Shown piece by piece: positions 11,500-22,854 of a stretch of 24,000 nucleotides of DNA. The DNA is from an uncultured Alphaproteobacteria bacterium (GTDB lineage: Bacteria > Pseudomonadota > Alphaproteobacteria > ATCC43930 > CGMCC-115725), in assembly GCA_963702925.1 (NCBI GenBank), contig OY969771.1:2080715-2104714 (forward strand), in the 5' to 3' direction. Numbering within the stretch: the first letter of the stretch is position 1; each line of letters starts with the position of its first letter. Below the pieces are notes generated by a model, which was not told the origin of the DNA, searched no databases, and worked only from the letters and a program-made list of their open reading frames with translations. Position numbers and translations under genes: made by a program.

Positions 11500-12765
11500 T
11501 CACGCACCATTGCCGCCGCGGCGCCTCTGCGAACGTGCGAGCTGTATCGCGAGATGACCAACCGCTAGCTTCACGTAGCGCTGGACCATCTTTGGACTTT
11601 TCCATCCCCCGAGCACCATGAGCGAAGGGGCATCGACACCGTCCATGACCGCCCAGCTCGCCCAATGATGGCGCCAATCGTGAATTCTAAACCAGTTGAT
11701 TTTCGCAACGAGTTCCGGGCGGCAGGTCTTATGGCAGCTTGCGCAGGAGAGCGCGTAGTCGCTCAGCTCCTCCCGTTCGCCGGCGGGACGAACAACCGCG
11801 AGCTCGACGCACGCGTTCGCCGGGCCTCCTGGTGCCGCGCTGAGCTTGGCGCCGCAATGCAGACAGGTTTTTTGGTCCTTCAGAAGCTTCTTGATCGTGA
11901 ACCGCCGTAGCGCCGTGGCGTGCGCCTTCCGAATACCCGAACCGTCGCGCCCCTCACCATGCGAGGCGCTGCGGCGATCGACATAAGGCGTTCCATCTGG
12001 CTTGACGAACACCGGCCCGCTGGTTTGAAGATTATGCATCTTCTCCAACGTCGCGCGGACTTCCGGGTGCATCGGCGCGACCCGCATGTCGCCGTTCTTC
12101 GTCTTGCGGAAGGTCACTGTGTCGCGACTTAAGCTGACGTCCGGCCATTGCAGACGAAGCGCTTCGGATTCGCGGCACCCTTGAAGGCAAAGCGTCAGCG
12201 CAATGGGCTTCGCGTGGTCGGCATATTCCGCCAGAAGCCCGTCTCGGTCCTCGGACTCCAGGAAGATCTCCCGAACGGCTCCGTCGGACGGCAACACGAA
12301 CTTCGGCAAGGTGAGCTTGAACTTCTCCGCCGTGCGCACGAGCGGCGGCGAAAACATCGCGTACCAGCGCCGCACCGTGGCCGGCGCCGGATCGTCGAGC
12401 TTCTCGGCGACGAACTTATCCCAGTCTTCGGGCTCGAAGGAGTCGACCGGCTTCTCTTCGAAGAACTTTCCGAGACGCAGCAGCTTCTGGCGGTCCTGGT
12501 TCCCGAGTGGCGTACTTCCTTTTGCCTTTGCGTCCACGTAGTCGGCGGCGGCCGTCGCGAAGCCGGGGATGGCCTTTGATTTGGCGGGCTTTTCGCCGCG
12601 GAGCAGCTGCTCGCTGATCTCGGCGCAGCGGCGGGTATAAATTACCTGCGCGCTTGTCTTGTCGCGGCAGCCCGTAGTCTCTCTAATCCGGACGCTCGTT
12701 TTCCCAACGCGGATCGTGCCAACGATCCAGAAGACGGCACCCCGTTTGGTGAGCTTGGAGGACAT
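11500..12765 (-). CDS. Tyrosine recombinase / phage-type integrase with a CxxC...CxxC insertion in the catalytic domain
   Basis: 421 aa. It has an arm-binding-like N-terminus (KRGAVFWIVGTIRVGKTSVRIRETTG). Catalytic elements: LQGCRESEALRLQWPDV (Arg), HDWRHHWAS (HxxR), GGWKSPKMVQRYVKL (Tyr). An extra segment, CLHCGAKLS...CASCHKTC, lies between the K-hairpin and HxxR. Confidence 0.9.
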   Translation of the reverse strand: MSSKLTKRGAVFWIVGTIRVGKTSVRIRETTGCRDKTSAQVIYTRRCAEISEQLLRGEKPAKSKAIPGFATAAADYVDAKAKGSTPLGNQDRQKLLRLGKFFEEKPVDSFEPEDWDKFVAEKLDDPAPATVRRWYAMFSPPLVRTAEKFKLTLPKFVLPSDGAVREIFLESEDRDGLLAEYADHAKPIALTLCLQGCRESEALRLQWPDVSLSRDTVTFRKTKNGDMRVAPMHPEVRATLEKMHNLQTSGPVFVKPDGTPYVDRRSASHGEGRDGSGIRKAHATALRRFTIKKLLKDQKTCLHCGAKLSAAPGGPANACVELAVVRPAGEREELSDYALSCASCHKTCRPELVAKINWFRIHDWRHHWASWAVMDGVDAPSLMVLGGWKSPKMVQRYVKLAVGHLAIQLARSQRRRGGNGA

Positions 12766-12968
12766 GATTCGGTCGCCTCGAGTAGAAGATGCAGCTGATG
12801 AGTTGTGAGACAGGTGTCTCGGCCAAGCCGCTGCACGGGAATCCCGTGCTTCTTGAGCAGACCTTTCAGCTTCCGCTCGACATCGCGGTCCTTGAGTTGC
12901 AGCACGGCACCGACCTCGCTCAGCGTCATCAAGCGTTCGGGGGTCTGGCTATCGGCGATGCGGTTCAT
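12642..12968 (-). CDS. Putative small HTH DNA-binding protein (AlpA/excisionase-like)
   Basis: 108-aa ORF immediately upstream of the integrase. The segment MTLSEVGAVLQLKDRDVERKLKGLLKKHGIPVQRLGRDTCLTTHQLHLLLEA resembles excisionase-type HTH proteins. There is no clear SD. The last 124 nt or so overlap the integrase and encode a low-complexity tail. Confidence 0.4.
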   Translation of the reverse strand: MNRIADSQTPERLMTLSEVGAVLQLKDRDVERKLKGLLKKHGIPVQRLGRDTCLTTHQLHLLLEATESCPPSSPNGVPSSGSLARSALGKRASGLERLRAAATRQARR

Positions 12969-13115
12969 GATCCGGTGTTCGCGAAATCTGTCTCCGACAA
13001 CCCGGACGTGGGGCCGTCCATGGACCGGTCAACAGCGCGGCGCCGACCGAAATCGGCGATCGCCTAAAATGCAAGGCATCTCCCGCACCTTCGCCGACAG
13101 CCGCCCTAGTATTAA

Positions 13116-13480
13116 GGCGCGCCCCCATGGCGGCCTGGCGTCCGGCCTCTCATTTGGAGCCTTGAGCGAGCGTCCATCTGTCCGGTCCGGGCGCTTCGCA
13201 ACTGGATCACGGCGGCGCCGATCCGCGACGGTGCGATTTTTCGCCATGTCGATCGGCACGGGCGCGTGCTGGCGCGGCTCTCGGGTCATGCCGTCACCGT
13301 CATCGTTCAACGCCGCGCACGGCCTGCGCTCGCGCTTCGCCGCGGCCGCCTCGGCCGCCGGCACCGACATTGTCGAGATTATGAATCAAACCGCCACAAA
13401 TCCGTCTCGACCGCGAAGCTCTATATTCGGCGGGCAAGGGAGAACCAGTTCCGCAATCGCGCGGCCCGTCTGGCAGGAAT
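13116..13480 (+). pseudogene. 3-prime remnant of a tyrosine integrase gene, 5-prime truncated and carrying at least two frameshifts
   Basis: Frame B reads ...CPVRALRNWITAAPIRDGAIFRHVDRHGRVLARLSGHAVTVIVQRRA. The reading then continues in frame A as HGLRSRFAAAASAAGTDIVEIMNQT (HxLR box). It returns to frame B as RHKSVSTAKLYIRRARENQFRNRAARLAG (catalytic Tyr box). An in-frame stop at 13113-13115 lies just upstream, and no N-terminal half is present. Confidence 0.75.
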
Positions 13481-13562
13481 GGAAGGCGTGCCTCGCATGA
13501 GCCATTGGTCCATCGAGGAACTACTCTCCAAATTCACGATCGCGGAAATGCGCGTGCCGACC

Positions 13563-14096
13563 TCACCGTCGCGTCGCGTGGCTGAAGGAGCGGAATCCGC
13601 TTGCGATCGTGGGTGCAAAATCGTTGAACCATTTCAGCAGCGCTGCCTTCTCGTGGCCCGTCCGCTCTTCCAAGATGAGCGCTTCGAGGGCCGCTTGCGC
13701 CTCCATGACCGTTTCCGAGACGCCGCAAAGGATGTGGCAGCATCGAGAATTCGCCAATCCGAAGTCGTTGACGACATAGAAGCCGAAAGTGAAGAGCGTG
13801 GAATTGCCTTTGGCGCAGCCGCTGATGTAGGCGGTCATCAGGTCTCGCCCTTCCGGATAGCAAAGAAGCAGGTAGCGACGTTGGCTTGCGCCTTGGAATT
13901 TCGTCCAGAACCGCCGCAACGGCGTCGCTTCCGCAGAAGGCTCGGCCGCGGATGCCGGGTCAGGCGCGACAGTCCGAGGTGAAATGGATGCCGCGGCCGC
14001 TTCGAGGTCCGGCACACGCTCACAGGCGTCGCGCCGGGTTGACATGCGCTCACTCGGATCAAGCTCGACTGGGTACTGGGGAATGCCGGCGGTCAT
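13563..14096 (-). CDS. Hypothetical protein, about 177 aa
   Basis: The ORF extends to 14213, but that upstream part is R/P-rich. The ATG at 14096 has GGAG about 8 nt upstream. The C-terminal two-thirds look protein-like (RRYLLLCYPEGRDLMTAYISGCAKGNSTLFTFGFYVVNDFGLANSRCCHILCG...). No family recognised. Confidence 0.55.
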   Translation of the reverse strand: MTAGIPQYPVELDPSERMSTRRDACERVPDLEAAAASISPRTVAPDPASAAEPSAEATPLRRFWTKFQGASQRRYLLLCYPEGRDLMTAYISGCAKGNSTLFTFGFYVVNDFGLANSRCCHILCGVSETVMEAQAALEALILEERTGHEKAALLKWFNDFAPTIASGFRSFSHATRR

Positions 14097-14761: not shown

Positions 14762-16309
14762 TTAGCTCGGAGGCGCACGGCCTCCCTGGCCGGCCGCCGG
14801 AGCCTGCGAAGGCGGCCGCGCTTTCCCGCTTGTAGGGCGCTGCCGAGACGCTTGGTCGGCCGCGCGCGGCAGGCGCTGCAAGTTGAGGGCGAGCCCCAAA
14901 GGCTCGATCGCCTCGTCGATAAGGCTGACGAGGCGCTCCACCGCTTTCTCTTGGCGGGTGCGCTCCGCCGCGCTTGCGCCGAGATGAAGCCATCGCACGA
15001 TATCCGCGAGGGCATGGAGCGCGGCATGGGCGGCGCGCGGCGCGTTGACGGTGATGCGATCAAGCCCGAGGGCCGCCTGGCGATCGCGATGCGCCGCGGC
15101 GCGCTCCGCCGCGGTCATCGCGCGCGCCGCATGCTTGCGCGGGCGTCCGATTTTCCGGCCGTGCACCGACAGGCGGACCGCCGGCTCCGACCCGTTCGCA
15201 ACCAGGATCGGCTCGATCAGCCGTCGCGCGAGAAACCGCACGACAGGGACCGCGACCGCATCCGCCGCAAGGGCGTATGCATGCGAATAGGCGGGCGGCA
15301 GACGATAATCGTCCGGAACGCCCATGAGCCGCGCCGCCTCGCGTGCCGAGAGGAGCCGCGAGCGCAGGTCTTTGCCCTCGATGCGGAGTATTTTCTGTCG
15401 GCTCGCGCCGCCCGTCGGCATCCGTAAGCAGCCGGCGAGATCGTCGGTGCGAAGCTCCACCACGGACGCTCCTGCGTCTCGAGGTCCACGCGTGCGTTCA
15501 TAGAGACAACCGATCGCGAGTTTGTTGCGCCGCTGCGCGCGGCGGAGCTTTTCTCGATCGCGCGCCGACAGCCTCTCGATCAGCTCCCGCGTTCTTTCCG
15601 GCGTATCCCATGCCGCGTCTGCAACGCCGGTTTCGATCAGATCGACCAACTCGACGGTGCGTCGCGCCGGCCGCGGCAGCCGCCACCAGATCCAGCGGCG
15701 CGCCGTCTCGGGATCGAGCAAATCGTGGAACTCGCAGACCTGCCGCGGATGCCAGAGCGGCGACGGCTTGTCGCCGATCAGCCACGGCGGCAGCGACAGG
15801 TCTTCGCGCGCGGCGACGAGGAAGGCCCGCGGACGCGACTGCGGCACGAACCAGGCGGCATCGGCGATCACGACCCCGTAAACATAGCCAGCGCCGCTCA
15901 AGGCGCGCAAAATCTCCGCGAGATCCTCGCCGCCATTCGAGGTCACGAGGGCGGACACGTTCTCGATCGCGATGATCGCCGGATGACGGATGCCGCGCCG
16001 CAGCTCCTGAAGCAGTCGGCAAAACTCCCATACCACCGCGCCGCGCATGCCGGAAATGCCCGCCCGTCTGCCGGCCGGAGAAAAGTCCTGGCATGGAAGG
16101 GACGCCCAGCCGAGATCGGCGCGTTCTGGGAGATGATGCGCGTCGAGGGTCGCGATATCGCTTTCGCAAAAAGCCGCGCGCCCAAAATTGGCGCGGTAGG
16201 CATCGGCCTTCACGCAGTCGAAATCGTTTGCGAACAAGCAACGCCACTCCTCGCCGAGCCCTAGGCGCACAGCACCCATGCCGGCGAAAAATTCATAAAA
16301 GGTTTTCAT
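14762..16309 (-). CDS. dcm: DNA (cytosine-5)-methyltransferase with a C-terminal extension of about 150 aa
   Basis: The start is taken at MKTFYEFFAGMG (ATG at 16309, GGAG about 9 nt upstream). Motifs: I FAGMGA, IV SLPCQDFS, VI IENV, VIII QSRPRAFL, X AADAVAVPVV. The C-terminal tail contains GRPRKHAARAMTAAERAAAHRDR (AT-hook-like GRPRK). Confidence 0.9.
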   Translation of the reverse strand: MKTFYEFFAGMGAVRLGLGEEWRCLFANDFDCVKADAYRANFGRAAFCESDIATLDAHHLPERADLGWASLPCQDFSPAGRRAGISGMRGAVVWEFCRLLQELRRGIRHPAIIAIENVSALVTSNGGEDLAEILRALSGAGYVYGVVIADAAWFVPQSRPRAFLVAAREDLSLPPWLIGDKPSPLWHPRQVCEFHDLLDPETARRWIWWRLPRPARRTVELVDLIETGVADAAWDTPERTRELIERLSARDREKLRRAQRRNKLAIGCLYERTRGPRDAGASVVELRTDDLAGCLRMPTGGASRQKILRIEGKDLRSRLLSAREAARLMGVPDDYRLPPAYSHAYALAADAVAVPVVRFLARRLIEPILVANGSEPAVRLSVHGRKIGRPRKHAARAMTAAERAAAHRDRQAALGLDRITVNAPRAAHAALHALADIVRWLHLGASAAERTRQEKAVERLVSLIDEAIEPLGLALNLQRLPRAADQASRQRPTSGKARPPSQAPAAGQGGRAPPS

Positions 16310-16540
16310 CGTATCGCTCCGCCTCAAACCGCCGCCTGCGCGCGGCACGCGGCACGCGGCAGTCTGCGGCAATCACGAGAAGCCGAACAGAGATTTCGCT
16401 TCGCACACGAAAGCGGGCGTCTTTACCGGATTTCGAGCGGTTTTCGTCCTTGATGCGAAACGCTGGAGTTCGGCCAAAGCAGGGCGCGATTCATGGCCTC
16501 GAGGCTTCGTCGCGCGGCACCGCACGACTATGATCATGGC

Positions 16541-17005
16541 ATGACCGACGTGTTCAGCCGCGCGAAGCGCAGCAGCATCATGCGCCAGGTGAAGGGCGCG
16601 AACACGGCGCCTGAGTTGCGGGTGCGCAGTCTTGCGCATCGCCTCGGCTATCGCTTCAGGCTGCATCGCAAGTCCCTGCCCGGCCGCCCCGATCTGGTTT
16701 TCCCAAGTCGGCGGATCGCGCTCTTCGTTCACGGCTGTTTCTGGCACCGGCATCCCGACTGCTCGGCAGCATCGATGCCAGCGAGCAATGTCGAGTACTG
16801 GCGGCAGAAATTTGCGCGGAACAAGGCGCGCGATGCTGCGGCGGCCCGAGATCTCGCGCGTATCGGTTGGAAGGTCGCGATCATTTGGGAATGTGAGACG
16901 CGTGACCTCGACGAACTCGCTGCGCGGCTGCACCGCATTTTGAACCGCGGTCACCGCCAAAAGCCCTCGCCACGGACCGGATCGAAGGCCGTTGCCGATC
17001 GCTGA
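16541..17005 (+). CDS. vsr: Very-short-patch repair endonuclease (Vsr)
   Basis: MTDVFSRAKRSSIMRQVKGANTAPELRVRSLAHRLGYRFRLHRKSLPGRPDLVFPSRRIALFVHGCFWHRH...WKVAIIWECE is colinear with E. coli Vsr as I recall it. The start is taken at ATG 16541 rather than the ORF-track 16493. Confidence 0.9.
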   Translation: MTDVFSRAKRSSIMRQVKGANTAPELRVRSLAHRLGYRFRLHRKSLPGRPDLVFPSRRIALFVHGCFWHRHPDCSAASMPASNVEYWRQKFARNKARDAAAARDLARIGWKVAIIWECETRDLDELAARLHRILNRGHRQKPSPRTGSKAVADR

Positions 17006-17332: not shown

Positions 17333-17429
17333 CCCCGTACATTCGTAGCGATGCCCCCGGAAATATGTAGGGATAGCCCCGGAAAGATGGAGGGATTGGA
17401 CCGCCCAAACCCCGTAAACTTGTAGGGAT
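17333..17429 (+). repeat. Helically phased direct-repeat (iteron or arm-site-like) array with GTAGGGAT core
   Basis: Cores are GTAGCGAT (17345), GTAGGGAT (17367), GGAGGGAT (17389) and GTAGGGAT (17422), with spacing of 22, 22 and 33 bp. The 22-bp units at 17345-17366 and 17367-17388 share 18/22 positions. The longer units CCCCGTACATTCGTAGCGAT (17333) and CCCCGTAAACTTGTAGGGAT (17410) share 16/20 positions and lie 77 bp apart. Confidence 0.55.
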
Positions 17430-17907
17430 CGGGTGCGGAAGCTCTTGAAGCGGCGAAGCAATTCGGCCGCCGAATCTTAAGAGAACTAAGAAGAACAAGA
17501 GAACTGTTCCGCCCTTCGGGCGGCAGCGCCTCTTCACGCGACGAGGTTTGGGTGCGGCGGTCGCGAGAGCTTCGTGCACCAATAGGCCACACGACGCCAG
17601 CTATCGGCCGTGCCAGGCGCGTGGAGGCCGATCGCAGAGGAGCTTGGGGGCTACCGCGAACCAGCTCTAGGAGCCTTCTCCCGCGTCATCGCCAGCTGGC
17701 CGAGTTAGGCCGCATGGCGGGCCGATGCGTCAGCAGAACTTCCGCCGTCCGGTCGCGCGTGCCGGCGCGCCGAGCGCCATCCTCTTCGTGCGAAGCGACG
17801 CGGGATCTTCCGCGTTCAAATCACCCGCTTCACCCGGTCGCCTCTAGCGGACCGTTCACCGCGCCACCAACTCCCTCGACACACCGACTAGTCCATTGGA
17901 GAGCCAA

Positions 17908-18289
17908 GATGAGCGAGCGCGCGCAAAGAGCCAAGGCGGGTCTCGTCCGCTACGGCATGCTCAACCGCGAAAAATTCCCGGACCTGGAGCTGACCGTCGC
18001 GGAAGTCGCGGTGCTTCTCGCGGTTGGCGATGAGCAAGTGCGGGTATGGGCGCGGAAGGGAATGTTGCCGGGCTGCATCTACGGGAAGGAATGGCGCTTC
18101 ACGTGGACGACGCTCGATGAACTGAAACGGCGCCTGCGAAACGAAGCCGAGGAGCGTCGGCTGCTGCGGCAAAAACGCGGGAGCGAAGCCAAAGCAGAGG
18201 CCCCGCATTATGCGCGCGTTGACGATGTAGCGCCGACGCCGAAGAGGGCGTCGCGGCCACGTCGCGAGGCTGCAGACGCGGCATTCTAG
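17908..18289 (+). CDS. Excisionase-family helix-turn-helix DNA-binding protein
   Basis: The ATG at 17908 has GGAGAG 5-10 nt upstream. LTVAEVAVLLAVGDEQVRVWARKGMLPGCIYGKEWRFTWTTLDELKRRL matches the excisionase/MerR-like HTH pattern. The ORF-track extension back to 17552 is R/S/P-rich and was rejected. Confidence 0.75.
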
Positions 18290-18496
18290 CACGCTCTTGC
18301 GCAGTATTGTTCTCAAGCAATTACTTCGACTGACTCAGTAACAGGGGACAACATCAGTTCCCTCGAAATAAATGTGATCCCAAGTTACTGAACAAGTGCA
18401 CAATTGGATACCATATTACATACGGGTACAGGCTGGCGCACACAGGGTTCCAGCGCCGGTGGTTGATCGGATCACGCCCTCTTTGGAGAAGACGAA

Positions 18497-20704
18497 ATGC
18501 GCAGCTTAGCCGATGCTCTCGCCGTCCAGACGCTACGGACGGATCCCCGCAACCCGAGCGCGCGCGCCCGCCGCGGCGCCGCAAGTCGAGGCATTGAGGC
18601 CGCGGCGCGGGCCTTGGGAAAGCCCGCTTCGGAGCTCCCAGCCGATGCGACGGCCATCGCGGCAATGCAGTCCGCCAAGGTGGACCGACAGGCGGTCTGG
18701 GCGGCGAGACGGGCGATCGAGGTGGTCGAAGCTGTTCCCGAACCCAACCTGCGGACGGCAGTCGCCGTCGCGCGGAAAGCCGATCCGACGCTCGCGGATG
18801 TCATGGACGCCGTCGGGGTCACGGACTGGGACGACAAAGGACGCGTCATCCGGTCTTTGCAGTGCGTCGCCGCGTTCCTGCGGCTGGCGCCGGCGGAAAT
18901 CCCGGCGCGCTTCGCCGAACTCGACGAGCCTGCGCTGAAAAAAATGACGGCGGGTCATTTCCGCGTCGATTCCCCGGCTACGGCTAAAGTCATGCGATCG
19001 CGCGCCCGCGCGGCGATCCGCCTGTTGGATTGCTTCAACGGAAGGCGCCCGATCGGTCAACTCAATGGCGGATGGGAGACCCTGCGTTTCCATCTCGATG
19101 CTGCGATCAGAGGAAAAATTGTGAATGGCAGCTCGCGCGGCGAGCTTCTCCCTTTCTTCGCGTTTTGTAGTGCCAAGGGGTTCGGGCCTGGGCAGGCCGA
19201 CAAAGCGGTAGCCGCCTGGGCCGCTCAGCTCGAGCATGAAAAGAAGCGGGGTTGGAAGAAAAAGGTACGGCGGCTCGTCCATCGTTGGAACGCGCTCGGG
19301 GAATCGCATCTGATCGCAAGCCTTCCGAGCGTCCGGCTCGCCGCGCCGACGTTCCCCACGCATCGTGTTGCGCGTTCTTTCAAAGATCTCAATCCGCTTT
19401 TGCAACTGTCTTGGAAGGACTGGGAAAAACGTCACACGCCGCCGCGCTCCGCCACCTCGCTGCTGGAGAGGATTTTCCCGAAGTCCGCCGCGGGCCGCCC
19501 TCCGGCGGCTCCGTCGTCGACGCCGCAGCTGGAACAGCTTTTCGCCCGGCGACCGGGACCGGACGCTCGTGGGCGGCGCGATTATCTGTCGGCGACCTAT
19601 CTAAAGGGTCTCGAATGGCATCTTTGCTTCGTCTATACGCGCCTCGTCGAGGAGGGCGTTCCGGAGGCCAAGCTCGCTTCCGTCGAAGCCGTGCTCACCT
19701 ACGAGAGATTTTCCATGGCTTTGGAGGCCATGATCCGTCGGAAATACGCCAAGAGCGACCGCGAGGGACAACCCCCTCATCTCGATGCCTCGATCGAGCG
19801 GTTCGCCTCGCAGCTGATCACGATCGCGAAAGGAGCTGGCGTCGACCAGGCTGATCTCGAGGAGATGGACCGCGTCGCCAACGCGCTGCGGCGGGAGACC
19901 GCCTCGGGCGGCCCACGCAACGGCTGCCAAATGAGTCCGCGGCGCCGGGCGATGCTGCAGCAGTTCAACGCCCCGGAGCGAATTCTGGCCTGGTATTACC
20001 GGCCGGCGCGCATCTACGAGCAAGTCATGAAAGCGCTCGGCGCCGTCGCGAATGGTCGCGTTCAGTTCGCGCTCATCGACCCCGAGAATATCACGAAGGA
20101 GCGCTGCGCTGCGATGGAATCGGCTGTGGTCATGCTCATTGAGCAGAACATGCCGCTTCGTTGCAGAAACGTCGGCACGACGCGCTGGAAGGGTGATCGG
20201 CCGAACCTGAGCCTGCCCACGAGGCAAGGCGAAGACGGCTTTCTTCGCTACGACGGCGCGGAAACCAAGACCAAGGTGAACCTTTCCACGCCGCTCGATC
20301 CCGACGCCGTTCAGCTCATCCGCGTCTGGATCGAAGTTTTTCTGCCATGGAAGATCGCCAAGCAAGGCGTCGATCCCGCGAACGTCTATCTATTCCCGGC
20401 GCGCGGCCTCGAGCATAAGGGCCTCTCCAACCTCACTACCAACGTGAGGCGGCAGTACGCGGCGGTCGGGCTCGATCTCGACCTCCATATTCACCGTGCG
20501 CTCGCGGGCAAGATCATTCTCACTGTTCACCCCTTCAGCATCGAGCTCGTCGCGCGGCTGCTCGGGCATCGCGATGCCGAGGTCACGCGCAAGTTCTACG
20601 CCGAGGAGGTGGACCCCTTCATCGTCCACGCCACATGGCAGCGCATCCTCAAGTCGGAAATCGAGCGGCTCAGTCAGAAGAAGCTTCTGACCCCGGTTCC
20701 GTGA
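18497..20704 (+). CDS. Large (735 aa) tyrosine recombinase with extended N-terminal region
   Basis: GGAGAA lies 6 nt before the ATG. The C-terminal catalytic domain has NMPLRCRNVG (Arg), VWIEVFLPW, LHIHRALAGKI (HxxR) and LLGHRDAEVTRKFYAE (His/Tyr). The N-terminal region of about 480 aa has no counterpart in ordinary integrases. Confidence 0.8.
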   Translation: MRSLADALAVQTLRTDPRNPSARARRGAASRGIEAAARALGKPASELPADATAIAAMQSAKVDRQAVWAARRAIEVVEAVPEPNLRTAVAVARKADPTLADVMDAVGVTDWDDKGRVIRSLQCVAAFLRLAPAEIPARFAELDEPALKKMTAGHFRVDSPATAKVMRSRARAAIRLLDCFNGRRPIGQLNGGWETLRFHLDAAIRGKIVNGSSRGELLPFFAFCSAKGFGPGQADKAVAAWAAQLEHEKKRGWKKKVRRLVHRWNALGESHLIASLPSVRLAAPTFPTHRVARSFKDLNPLLQLSWKDWEKRHTPPRSATSLLERIFPKSAAGRPPAAPSSTPQLEQLFARRPGPDARGRRDYLSATYLKGLEWHLCFVYTRLVEEGVPEAKLASVEAVLTYERFSMALEAMIRRKYAKSDREGQPPHLDASIERFASQLITIAKGAGVDQADLEEMDRVANALRRETASGGPRNGCQMSPRRRAMLQQFNAPERILAWYYRPARIYEQVMKALGAVANGRVQFALIDPENITKERCAAMESAVVMLIEQNMPLRCRNVGTTRWKGDRPNLSLPTRQGEDGFLRYDGAETKTKVNLSTPLDPDAVQLIRVWIEVFLPWKIAKQGVDPANVYLFPARGLEHKGLSNLTTNVRRQYAAVGLDLDLHIHRALAGKIILTVHPFSIELVARLLGHRDAEVTRKFYAEEVDPFIVHATWQRILKSEIERLSQKKLLTPVP

Positions 20705-22854
20705 TGATTAGCGGGATAGCAGCAGTTCCGTTTCTCCAGTGGCCTGCCGGCCTCAGCGAAGCCTGGAGCATGCTGCCGCAGAGCGTTCGGCAGCGCCGAT
20801 CGGAGCTCGAGCGGTTCCTGGGGTATCGCGCGAAGATCGAAGGCGCCGCGGCTCTCGCCGAGGTGCCGCCTCAGGGATCGATCGACGGATACATCGCCGC
20901 AATGGACGCGCTTCCTCGCAAGAAAGCCGAGCAGGCGCGCCGACGCCTCCGCAACGCGCTCGACGCGCTTTATCCCGGGCGCTTCCGCTGGCGGCTTCGA
21001 CAACGCCCGCGCGTTCCCTGGCCGGCACCATTCCAACAAGCCTTCGATGAGAAAGTGCAAAAGAGCCGAACGATCGGCCAGTCGGTTTCGAAGTTCGTGG
21101 AGTTCCTGAGTGAGAAAGGCGAGGTCGAGAGCCTCGCCGCCTGTCCCGGTCGAGAGCTCGTTCGGGCTTTCGTCGCGCGGCTGGAAGACACCATGACCTC
21201 CGGTTCGGCGACGACCTACCGCCTGGCGTTGCGCGAGGCCCTGGCCGCGATCTTTCCACAGGCCGATTGGGAGTGGCTTCGCAATAAGAAGCAATGGGCC
21301 CTTCCCTTCGATGCGTGGCCCGCCAGCCTGCGCGAGAAATGGGTCGCGAGCGGCATTGCCTCCAAGAGCGCGCAAAGCGCGCTCGGCCGGCTCCTCGCAC
21401 ACTGGAGCGAGTTCAGCGCCGGGCTCGACGAGCCGCCAACGAGGTCGATCATCGACGGATTCGTCGAGCGGATCCGATCAATCGCGTCCGGGAAAAATGT
21501 GGATCACATCATCAGTGATCTCTTCTACGCACTAGCCGCGGTCTATCCGACCAAAGCACGTTGGCGCTGGCTGCGCCGAAGATACGGTGCCGTTCCGGCT
21601 CGCCGGCACCATGCTGGCCGTCCGATGGTCCTTTCGCTGCCGAAGGAGGCGTGGCCCGAAGGACACCTCGATCGCCTCATGGCACCCAGCGCTCTCACGA
21701 CCGCCGAAGCGTTGATAGCGCTTCTGCGGCCGAAGCGAGCTGACATGACTGGAGATCGGTCGAACGCGACCAACGCGGAAACGGGCGCGGGGCGATGCTG
21801 GCGGCCGTCGACGCGCGACAATGTTTGCTGCGCTTACGGGCTCTATCTCGGGACCGCCGTTCGAGCGGGGCTGCCCTCAAGCATCACGCCGGAGGGGCTC
21901 TACGCGTTCGTCGCGGAATGCGAAGCGCGCGGATCCCTGCTCTCAACGATTCTGAGCCGCTGTATGGGTCTCTACATGGTGGCGCTCGCGATCGCGCCGG
22001 AAAGCGACTGGAGCTGGCTCAGCGCGATCTGTCGGCGCTACGCCGATCTTCTGAGAGCCTGGACGCAAGATCCCGCGTTGGTTCACCGAACGCCAGCGCG
22101 CAAATACGGGATCGTGGTCAGCGCCGCAGAGATCTCGCTGCTCGGCGCCACGCACATCGCGGACGCCGGAAATTGCGAGAGCGATCTTGCCGCGGCGATT
22201 CTCTTTCGGGACGGGCTCATCCTGCGCCTGCTCGCTTCGGCACCGATGAGAGTTGGCACGCTGGCGACGACGGACATCGGCGGTCACCTCCGCGTTGATG
22301 GCGAAGAGGTTGTCGTCACCTTCTCGTGGGAAGAGACGAAAGAAAAGCGGGCGGAGATCTGGCCTCTCGAGCCGGAGCTCGCTGCCCTCATCCGCATGTG
22401 GATCGAGGTTTACCGGCCTCGGCTGACCGCGGAGGGCGAAAAGGCACTTTGGGTGGGACTGGCCGGCACGCGGCTCTCCGCTAAGACGATTTCGAGATCG
22501 ATCGCTGCGCTGACTGAAAAAAAGCTGCACATGAGAATTCCGGCGCACCGGATCCGCGATTGCGTCGCCAGCACGATCGCCGAGCGAGCGCCCGACAAGA
22601 CGAATATCTCTCGCTACATTCTGAAACATGGCAGCGATGGCGTGACGCGCATCTATGATAGCCATGCGGAGCTCGTTCAAGCCTCGCGGCGGTTCCGCGC
22701 CGCAACAAGGGCTTTCATCGAGGATGTTCGTCGGCAACTGGTCGCCTCGGGGCGGTGCCAACCCCGAGTGCGAACGATCGGAGATCTGCACGAGCCGGTG
22801 AAGCGGCCGCGCCGCCGTCGCGGCGAGATGCCGCCTGCGGCACCCGAGCGGTAA
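20704..22854 (+). CDS. Large (about 716 aa) tyrosine recombinase, paralogue of the upstream gene, with four tandem SAM-like N-terminal modules
   Basis: The ATG at 20704 overlaps the upstream stop (TGATG); GTG 20701 is an alternative start. The catalytic domain has APMRVGTLA (Arg), MWIEVYRPRL, IPAHRIRDCVAS (HxxR) and ILKHGSDGVTRIYDS (His/Tyr). The N-terminus shows repeated ...A(L)xA(I/V/L)(Y/F/A)P...WxW(L/R)... modules. Confidence 0.8.
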   Translation: MISGIAAVPFLQWPAGLSEAWSMLPQSVRQRRSELERFLGYRAKIEGAAALAEVPPQGSIDGYIAAMDALPRKKAEQARRRLRNALDALYPGRFRWRLRQRPRVPWPAPFQQAFDEKVQKSRTIGQSVSKFVEFLSEKGEVESLAACPGRELVRAFVARLEDTMTSGSATTYRLALREALAAIFPQADWEWLRNKKQWALPFDAWPASLREKWVASGIASKSAQSALGRLLAHWSEFSAGLDEPPTRSIIDGFVERIRSIASGKNVDHIISDLFYALAAVYPTKARWRWLRRRYGAVPARRHHAGRPMVLSLPKEAWPEGHLDRLMAPSALTTAEALIALLRPKRADMTGDRSNATNAETGAGRCWRPSTRDNVCCAYGLYLGTAVRAGLPSSITPEGLYAFVAECEARGSLLSTILSRCMGLYMVALAIAPESDWSWLSAICRRYADLLRAWTQDPALVHRTPARKYGIVVSAAEISLLGATHIADAGNCESDLAAAILFRDGLILRLLASAPMRVGTLATTDIGGHLRVDGEEVVVTFSWEETKEKRAEIWPLEPELAALIRMWIEVYRPRLTAEGEKALWVGLAGTRLSAKTISRSIAALTEKKLHMRIPAHRIRDCVASTIAERAPDKTNISRYILKHGSDGVTRIYDSHAELVQASRRFRAATRAFIEDVRRQLVASGRCQPRVRTIGDLHEPVKRPRRRRGEMPPAAPER

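Follow-up and report, generated by a model that had tools for sequence, protein, structure and literature searches.

The stretch of DNA considered here, referred to as the window, comprises 24,000 nucleotides (G000:C1:2080715-2104714) of the genome of an uncultured alphaproteobacterium, which is assembled as a single contig of 4.72 Mb. It contains a set of three co-oriented genes: a small gene for an excisionase-family helix-turn-helix (HTH) protein, followed by two genes for unusually large tyrosine recombinases, which we call ORF1 (the first, long recombinase) and ORF2 (the second recombinase; ORF, open reading frame). We refer to the three genes together as the triplet. Its parts, in window positions, are as follows.

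17909-18289, plus strand: excisionase-family winged-HTH gene, 126 amino acids, first gene of the triplet (Pfam HTH_17, TIGR01764)
18290-18496, no strand: low-GC spacer (49% G+C) from the HTH gene to the first recombinase, a candidate operator or recombinase-binding site
18497-20704, plus strand: first tyrosine recombinase (ORF1), 735 amino acids, with a helical N-terminal region of about 480 residues and a catalytic domain (family alignment, fold match)
18497-19066, plus strand: two tandem repeats of about 95 residues at the ORF1 N-terminus, residues 1-95 and 96-190 (profile-profile comparison)
20704-22854, plus strand: second tyrosine recombinase (ORF2), 716 amino acids, coupled to the first through TGATG (Pfam Phage_integrase, 40.1 bits)
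20704-21663, plus strand: three extra tandem copies of a four-helix module of about 100 residues, at ORF2 residues ~1-105, 106-205 and 206-320 (repeat alignments)

The presence of an HTH gene and two recombinase genes, first read from the letters in an initial annotation of this DNA, is confirmed, and the genes look functional. The list of open reading frames and their translations bears out two adjacent genes of 735 and about 716 codons that overlap at TGATG: the ORF2 frame is open from 20635, and its ATG at 20704 shares the A with the TGA stop codon of ORF1, giving a protein of 716 amino acids. The ATG of ORF1 is preceded by a Shine-Dalgarno-like GGAGAA, and third-position G+C is high in both frames, consistent with real coding sequence. 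The HTH protein scores narrowly above the cut-offs of both Pfam HTH_17 (29.1 bits, cut-off 27) and the TIGR01764 'excise' model (30 bits, cut-off 28.8), so that the excisionase-type gene proposed in the initial annotation stands, although its start had been given one base off. The next downstream open reading frame with coding-type composition lies on the opposite strand and is without a Pfam match. A promoter and terminator scan was uninformative for the locus.

Both large proteins belong to the tyrosine recombinase superfamily, as seen from their catalytic residues and their XerD- and Cre-like folds. ORF2 exceeds the cut-off of the Phage_integrase model (PF00589), while ORF1, at 21 bits, falls under the cut-off of 27.1. 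In ORF1, R555, K591, R667, H691 and Y701 are invariant in family alignment A1 (19 sequences), and H664 of the HxxR box is invariant in alignment A4 (five sequences); in ORF2, the corresponding set R516, K546, H615, R618, H642 and Y651 is conserved in its two aligned homologues. Thus the full catalytic domain claimed for each C-terminus is there, with R-K-H-R-H-Y in both proteins on alignment and no inactivating substitution, and both enzymes look catalytically competent. A fold search with the ORF1 model returned XerD as the best match, along with lambda Int and a staphylococcal integrase, and XerD is also the best sequence match of the ORF1 family profile in the PDB (E 1.3e-7). The ORF2 model is matched best by structures of Cre recombinase (probability 0.98-1.00). 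The models are of moderate confidence, with a mean predicted local distance difference test (pLDDT) score of 60.5 and 59.2, the underlying alignments are shallow, and it is the recombinase part alone that the fold search confirms. Neither recombinase has a match in PADLOC.

The two recombinases are paralogues. They align with 30% identity over 117 residues (E 1e-7), and this alignment covers the first Arg box as well as the (V/M)WIEV(F/Y) motif that had been noticed in both proteins beforehand. In a maximum-likelihood tree of the catalytic domains, the 16 long recombinases form one group (support 92/83) and the 13 second recombinases another (100/99), and nine further tyrosine recombinases from the genome of the window fall outside the two together (92/89). 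Long and second recombinases would then be sister clades, which fits an old, co-evolving pair, with the sister paralogy holding only against this small outgroup of nine proteins.

The N-terminal extensions reported initially, of about 450-480 residues, were measured as about 480 residues before the catalytic domain in ORF1 and about 460 in ORF2. Both proteins are double-sized, but for different reasons. In ORF1 the length is a family trait: the first recombinase is long throughout, at 560-770 amino acids. Searched exhaustively with ORF1, a set of 1.84 billion cluster representatives yielded 710 matches at E<=0.001, of which 96 reach E<=1e-10; roughly one third of the best 150 are 690-800 amino acids long, many align end to end, and their source names are just 'hypothetical protein' or 'integrase'. 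The helical N-terminal region, some 480 residues long, is conserved in the clade of 700-residue proteins, with T98, L189, W193, W264 and P277 among its invariant positions. It has no Pfam domain and no structural match. Its two terminal repeats, residues 1-95 and 96-190, recognize each other with a probability of 95.4% and an E value of 1.7e-8 in profile-profile comparison (hhalign), and are helical in the model with a pLDDT of about 70-84.

ORF2, on the other hand, is doubled in size because its N-terminal four-helix module has been tandemly duplicated. The three extra modules match one another in local alignments at z = 9-14 against shuffles, and module 2 matches the native module (residues 320-460) at z = 6.1. 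The four-helix module thus stands four times in tandem in ORF2 and once, directly before the catalytic domain, in its ordinary-sized relatives. The homologues form a graded set: the 630-residue protein of the closest relative is without module 1, proteins of 461-488 residues align from the third module onward, and a 348-residue paralogue has the last module alone. The extra modules (residues ~1-295) are modelled as helical bundles with a pLDDT of about 75-85. Pfam SAM-like models do not match the ORF2 modules, and Pfam searches with the separate N-terminal segments at E<=10 returned neither a SAM-like nor any other domain; from its position and the homology of the repeats, we infer that the module is of the core-binding type. 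Among the 13 loci with an intact and complete gene, the second recombinase is 289-716 amino acids long, mostly about 350 (289-387 in most loci), and strongly enlarged only in the window (716) and in its closest relative (630). To judge from these comparisons, the enlargement of ORF2 is a recent, lineage-specific expansion. Of all features of the system, this unusual domain architecture of the second enzyme is the most original.

How strictly the three genes keep together was surveyed in the window, a second copy in the same genome (L013), a 27.8-kb metagenome contig (L023), L024 and L038-L042, and in the plasmid loci L025-L029 (of which L025 is from Azospirillum TSH58) and L046-L049. The initial annotation had suggested surveying whether the triplet is conserved, and it is: the pair is present in all loci examined, with an ORF2-like gene next downstream on the same strand of every ORF1-like gene. 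Twelve loci offer sufficient upstream sequence, and in 11 of them a hidden Markov model built from seven HTH genes located an HTH gene ahead of the long recombinase. The two recombinase genes abut or overlap by 1-4 nucleotides in most loci (for example L013, L038, L039 and L042), with gaps of about 270 bp in L027 and about 1.1 kb in L040. On plasmids of Azospirillum, Roseomonas, Pukyongiella and Sulfitobacter, tblastn finds the pair always adjacent and co-oriented, with an annotated HTH gene in front. The closest relatives are those on L023, where a methylase gene, an HTH gene whose product is 65% identical to that of the window, and recombinases of 729 and 630 amino acids (56-57% identity) occur in the same order. 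The second copy in the same genome, at about 63.6-67.2 kb, is far more diverged: it consists of an HTH gene and recombinases of 719 and 348 amino acids that overlap by 4 nucleotides, and its pair is 22-25% identical to that of the window.

The triplet is rare. Matches occur in four of 400 sampled genomes of the class, in each of which an ORF2-like gene follows the ORF1-like gene, and a search of 60 relatives gave only two matches. No match to the pair was found in 17 congeneric genomes at E <= 1e-10. Word-indexed protein searches gave just one relative for each protein, to which a 19-sequence profile added none, and pattern scans of species genomes and of metagenomes with alignments of the close relatives gave zero matches; with a sister-clade alignment, the pattern scan yielded two useful loci, one of them a pseudogene. 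Decayed genes occur elsewhere too. In Skermanella stibiiresistens SB22 (contig90, L043, 1062-3201), the homologue of the long recombinase is frameshifted into two overlapping open reading frames, and in Azospirillum TSH58 the second recombinase is split. A fragment at G000:C1:92255-92452 (minus strand), 55% identical to ORF2 residues 428-495 and interrupted by an in-frame TGA, is what remains of a third copy, now decayed, in the genome of the window.

The spacer in front of ORF1 is the most G+C-poor of the stretches examined. It carries an inverted repeat with arms of 8 bp at 18335-18342 and 18384-18391, which in the alignment with L023 is retained through a compensatory change (CAGTAAC/GTTACTG versus CGGTAAC/GTTACCG). 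L013 and L040 have comparable inverted arms of 8-9 bp in this spacer, separated by 39-55 bp. At about 18420-18460 lies a strongly conserved block that includes CGGGTACAGGCTGG, which is near-identical in the window and L023, and within the block a run of 14 bp is identical between the two. These features make the spacer a candidate operator or recombinase-binding site. Another non-coding feature lies about 400 bp upstream of the HTH gene.

17333-17523, no strand: phased direct repeats in 22-bp units ending in GTAGGGAT-like cores, then an A-rich stretch and a GC hairpin (read from the sequence)

Three TGTAGGGAT-type cores of this cluster fall within 64 bp; the count of such cores over the whole window is by itself not significant (16 of 100 shuffles), and the phased array is not conserved in L023. 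The cluster is iteron-like or arm-site-like and could be an accessory binding array, its tie to the recombinases being speculative.

The triplet sits in strain-specific, accessory DNA. It lies 27 kb from a tRNA-Gly(GCC) gene (G000:C1:2071446-2071520) and within an insertion of 116.4 kb (2071446-2187976) that runs from this gene to a perfect 50-bp direct repeat of the tRNA 3' end at 2187927-2187976. In the congeneric genomes (17 searched), similarity of the left flank ends at tRNA-Gly. A Pfam scan revealed no integrase beside either end of the insertion. There is also a degenerate 30-nucleotide copy of the tRNA-Gly repeat at 2145484-2145513, which may split the insertion into two tandem islands. 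The accessory status of the triplet, its place in the tRNA-Gly island and its occurrence on plasmids are indirect pointers to its mobility. The window itself is an accessory patchwork that includes a sigma/helicase-nuclease cassette, AbiE, and the following genes.

11500-12765, minus strand: ordinary tyrosine integrase of 421 amino acids, 6 kb upstream of the triplet and adjoining AbiE and defence genes
14762-16372, minus strand: C5 cytosine methyltransferase (Pfam DNA_methylase, E 5.7e-46; best PADLOC model DruM, 438 bits)
16493-17005, plus strand: gene for a Vsr mismatch endonuclease, lying between methylase and triplet (Pfam Vsr, E 2.9e-29)

The 421-residue integrase is probably that of a separate nested or tandem island. 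The methylase is DruM-like, and no other Druantia genes were seen. L023 carries a 41%-identical methylase at the same position, without Vsr, for which no match was found in that contig; the methylase, syntenic with the triplet in L023, is a candidate part of the same element. After the pair, beyond the end of the window, follow a small gene, an AAA ATPase gene and a metallophosphoesterase gene (G000:C1:2104849-2108419, equivalent to window positions 24135-27705). The same cassette, at 44-69% identity, recurs after the second copy of the pair in this genome (G000:C1:68623-71387) and after the pair of L023 (L023:14451-17728). Its matches in PADLOC are only weak (TRIP13, PDC-S10), and it may serve defence or replication in a way not yet characterised. 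The two larger genes, of 519 and 278 amino acids, were also considered as IS21 istA/istB, an identification that was rejected, as they encode the AAA ATPase and the metallophosphoesterase. Altogether, a block of about 13 kb (methylase, HTH, two recombinases, AAA ATPase and metallophosphoesterase) is common to the window and L023 at 41-67% protein identity, with unrelated flanks.

Our preferred interpretation, to which we give a probability of roughly one half, is that the triplet belongs to an acquired element and provides it with heteromeric site-specific recombination, probably for integration and excision or for the movement of the 13-kb block. As the two paralogues stay together, it is natural to think of heteromeric action. 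If XerC/XerD, Tn554 and lambda Int/Xis are taken as models, the two enzymes would act jointly as a heteromeric complex on one asymmetric site, with two subunits of each in the synapse. Each kind of enzyme would exchange one pair of strands, as in XerC/XerD and as proposed for TnpA/TnpB of Tn554, while the HTH protein would set the direction of the reaction or regulate expression. The long helical N-termini (about 480 residues in ORF1, four tandem modules in ORF2) may provide extra contacts to DNA or protein that organise the synapse, and in this way could stand in for the arm-binding domain of classical integrases.

Several observations weigh against this interpretation. No ends, target duplication or att repeats were found around the triplet. 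A repeat search over 18 kb returned only short matches, as expected in DNA of 64% G+C; an 11-mer search of the non-coding stretches to the left against those to the right of the triplet gave only chance-type short matches; and no repeats bracket the conserved block of about 13 kb. When both flanks, and likewise the second copy, were compared at the DNA level across the genus, no syntenic empty site came to light; both copies lie in strain-specific DNA. A further difficulty is that in four related loci a gene for a large serine recombinase, with Resolvase, Recombinase and Zn_ribbon_recom domains, follows directly after the pair.

L039:11342-13054: serine recombinase after the pair
L041:~11890-13575: serine recombinase after the pair
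L040:7133-5532, minus strand: serine recombinase after the pair
L025:12486-13929: serine recombinase after the pair, frameshifted (Azospirillum TSH58)

Translational coupling appears to join the serine gene to the pair. With its 3' end, the serine gene of L039 and of L041 overlaps a tRNA-fMet gene, which in L041 stands at the end of an apparent ribosomal RNA operon, and the serine enzyme is the more obvious integrase of these two elements. Partial repeats of tRNA-fMet in G204 and G078 define no element. Since a serine integrase is coupled to the pair in this sister clade, the role of the pair as an integrase is uncertain; next to such an enzyme, the pair could serve a second target, resolution or the control of excision. 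The plasmid contexts point the same way. Plasmid copies are often near parA, and in two records near rep genes, with the order HTH-Int-Int-ParA-stability-Rep on Pukyongiella p4, which also fits a function in maintenance or resolution. Roseomonas plasmids share a DNA block of about 5.2 kb that consists of two upstream genes and the triplet and ends about 17 bp past the stop codon of the second recombinase, often adjoined by a DUF4214 gene. Because part of its surroundings is conserved too, the triplet in Roseomonas may be plasmid backbone and not an insert.

These contexts lend weight to the most serious of the alternatives, that the pair serves to resolve cointegrates or multimers formed by a plasmid, or by an island resembling one, at a site within the operon or close to it, possibly the spacer inverted repeat, much as XerCD acts at cer/dif and Cre at loxP. 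Plasmid copies beside partition and replication genes (Pukyongiella p4, the A. ramasamyi plasmid, Roseomonas with ParA nearby) fit such a role, as do the Xer proteins and Cre being the closest solved relatives by sequence and fold, the compensatory change that conserves the spacer inverted repeat, and the iteron-like 22-bp repeats upstream; in the sister clade, moreover, the serine integrase could take care of integration. However, resolution systems usually need neither an excisionase-type partner nor enzymes of 700 residues, the annotated stretches of the chromosomal copies (window, L013, L023 and L038) contain no rep or par genes, and arms 39-55 bp apart are unlike a classical core site with an overlap of 6-8 bp. 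On balance we regard maintenance as rather unlikely. A lower probability still attaches to the idea that the triplet alone is a small autonomous transposon, inserting site-specifically into other mobile DNA in the manner of Tn554. The combination of a long recombinase, an ordinary one and a small third gene matches the architecture of Tn554-related actinobacterial elements (PMC3414803), most loci have only the triplet in common while their neighbours vary widely, and the similarity between Roseomonas plasmids stops about 17 bp past the second recombinase. Yet that conserved block takes in two upstream genes as well, and in L023 the methylase and the AAA/phosphoesterase genes are syntenic with the pair. 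Moreover, the small gene comes first and the long recombinase precedes the short one, tblastn with the long protein finds no staphylococcal or actinobacterial genes of the Tn554 type, and instead of near-identical multiple copies the genome holds two that are 22-25% identical.

Two further explanations appear improbable. The defence-rich island with its adjacent DruM-like methylase, and the short inverted repeats flanking 39-55 bp in the spacers of four loci, would agree with a phase-variation or inversion switch, in which a short segment (for instance the promoter region in the spacer ahead of ORF1) is turned around to control nearby methylase or defence genes. The arms, however, measure only 8-9 bp, none of the genes in the region is enclosed by longer inverted repeats, most related loci are without methylase or defence neighbours, and known invertases are small single enzymes, all of which makes a switch very unlikely. 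That the genes are remnants of a dead element is, in our estimation, marginally less likely again. Decayed copies do exist (the Skermanella frameshift, the split gene of Azospirillum TSH58, the fragment at G000:C1:92255-92452), and no ends were found at the window locus, but here 735 and 716 codons are intact with coding-type third-position G+C, all catalytic residues are retained, and the homologues in the window and L023 are both intact at just 56-57% identity.

Within the preferred interpretation, that of a heteromeric recombination module, a more far-reaching proposal can be made, which we consider tentative and somewhat doubtful. The triplet would represent an undescribed family of two-recombinase systems in which arrays of duplicated core-binding-type modules (up to four per protein) in one enzyme, together with the family-specific N-terminus of about 480 residues of its partner, replace the arm-binding domain and read several DNA sites at once. 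This would be a new way of building a regulated, directional, heteromeric synapse, and the system can share its operon with a serine integrase. As homologues carry between one and four copies of the core-binding-type module, they offer a natural series for studying how extra DNA-binding modules alter site recognition. The triplet also adjoins anti-phage genes, and whether it moves them bears on how defence islands are assembled.

The initial annotation took the locus for an unclassified element with a heteromeric pair of giant recombinases. Of this, it holds that the two recombinases and their excisionase-type partner form a conserved module, apparently unclassified; a pair of giants is not the design of the family, in which the second enzyme is mostly about 350 residues long. 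A full-text literature search found no description of the module, an absence that is not proof that none exists. The module adds a distinct conserved family to the known systems, and its genetic signature could mark islands and plasmids in Rhodospirillales, Acetobacteraceae and Rhodobacterales. To our knowledge, elements with several tyrosine recombinases (Tn554, recombinase-in-trio (RIT) elements, GInt and SE) are mechanistically poorly understood, and none but the RITs is established in Alphaproteobacteria.

Tn554 carries tnpA (about 360 amino acids), tnpB (about 630) and tnpC (about 125), and it transposes site-specifically into a defined att site, lacking terminal repeats. Like Tn554 and the actinobacterial pairs related to it, the alphaproteobacterial module combines two adjacent, co-oriented, catalytic tyrosine recombinases, one of them abnormally long, with a small third gene. 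It differs in that its small gene is of the excisionase-type HTH class and comes first, in that the long enzyme precedes the short one, and in its alphaproteobacterial hosts; in the window the second enzyme is enlarged as well, by module duplication, and neither multiple identical copies nor an att554-like target are known. Transposition of Tn554 requires both recombinases, and a role of TnpC has also been described (PMC3414803). The actinobacterial pairs consist of a recombinase of 611-828 amino acids, with an N-terminal extension of more than 400 residues that lacks any recognisable domain, beside one of about 350 (Van Houdt et al. 2012, PMC3414803). As the pairing of a long with a normal recombinase has thus been published for Tn554-related elements, the general idea is not new. 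A tblastn search of 72,556 plasmid records with the long protein matched 23 at E<=0.05, 22 of them alphaproteobacterial and one a weak match in Deinococcus, and none staphylococcal, enterococcal or actinobacterial. The architecture therefore resembles that of Tn554, but membership in the Tn554 family is not supported, a judgement that draws on the plasmid search and on gene content and order and not on direct comparison with TnpA/TnpB.

XerC and XerD, too, are paralogous tyrosine recombinases, acting as a heterotetramer on one asymmetric site. Their genes, however, are non-adjacent core genes for proteins of about 300 residues without an HTH partner, whereas the pair described here is accessory, and in the equivalog test the score against the NCBIfam XerC model TIGR02224 was 38.4 bits, with a cut-off of 335. 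RIT elements of alpha- and betaproteobacteria share the overlapping, translationally coupled tyrosine recombinase genes. Their RitA has two sequential core-binding domains (PMC8138268) and may be seen as a smaller version of the module multiplication in ORF2. By description they are set apart, with three recombinases of ordinary size (ritA, ritB and ritC) and no HTH gene, in place of two recombinases.

The GInt (GinABCD) and strand-biased circularizing integrative (SE; IntA-Tfp-IntB-Srap) elements are likewise operons of several coupled genes of the tyrosine recombinase fold plus a small accessory gene, located at one end of an island. In contrast to the module of the window, in which both proteins are catalytic, no third protein of this fold occurs and the small HTH gene comes first, they include a catalytically dead third fold protein (GinC/Tfp) and have the small gene last (GinD/Srap). 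They have been reported only in Gamma- and Betaproteobacteria and were explicitly not found in Alphaproteobacteria (PMC10214605). With lambda-type integrase and excisionase systems, finally, the module has in common a tyrosine recombinase, an excisionase-family HTH protein and a tRNA-associated island, and it departs from them in having two enzymes and not one, no match to an arm-binding domain, and N-terminal regions that are much longer and differently built. Set beside these systems, the alphaproteobacterial module of HTH gene, long recombinase and second recombinase is conserved, rare and unnamed, and apparently unclassified.

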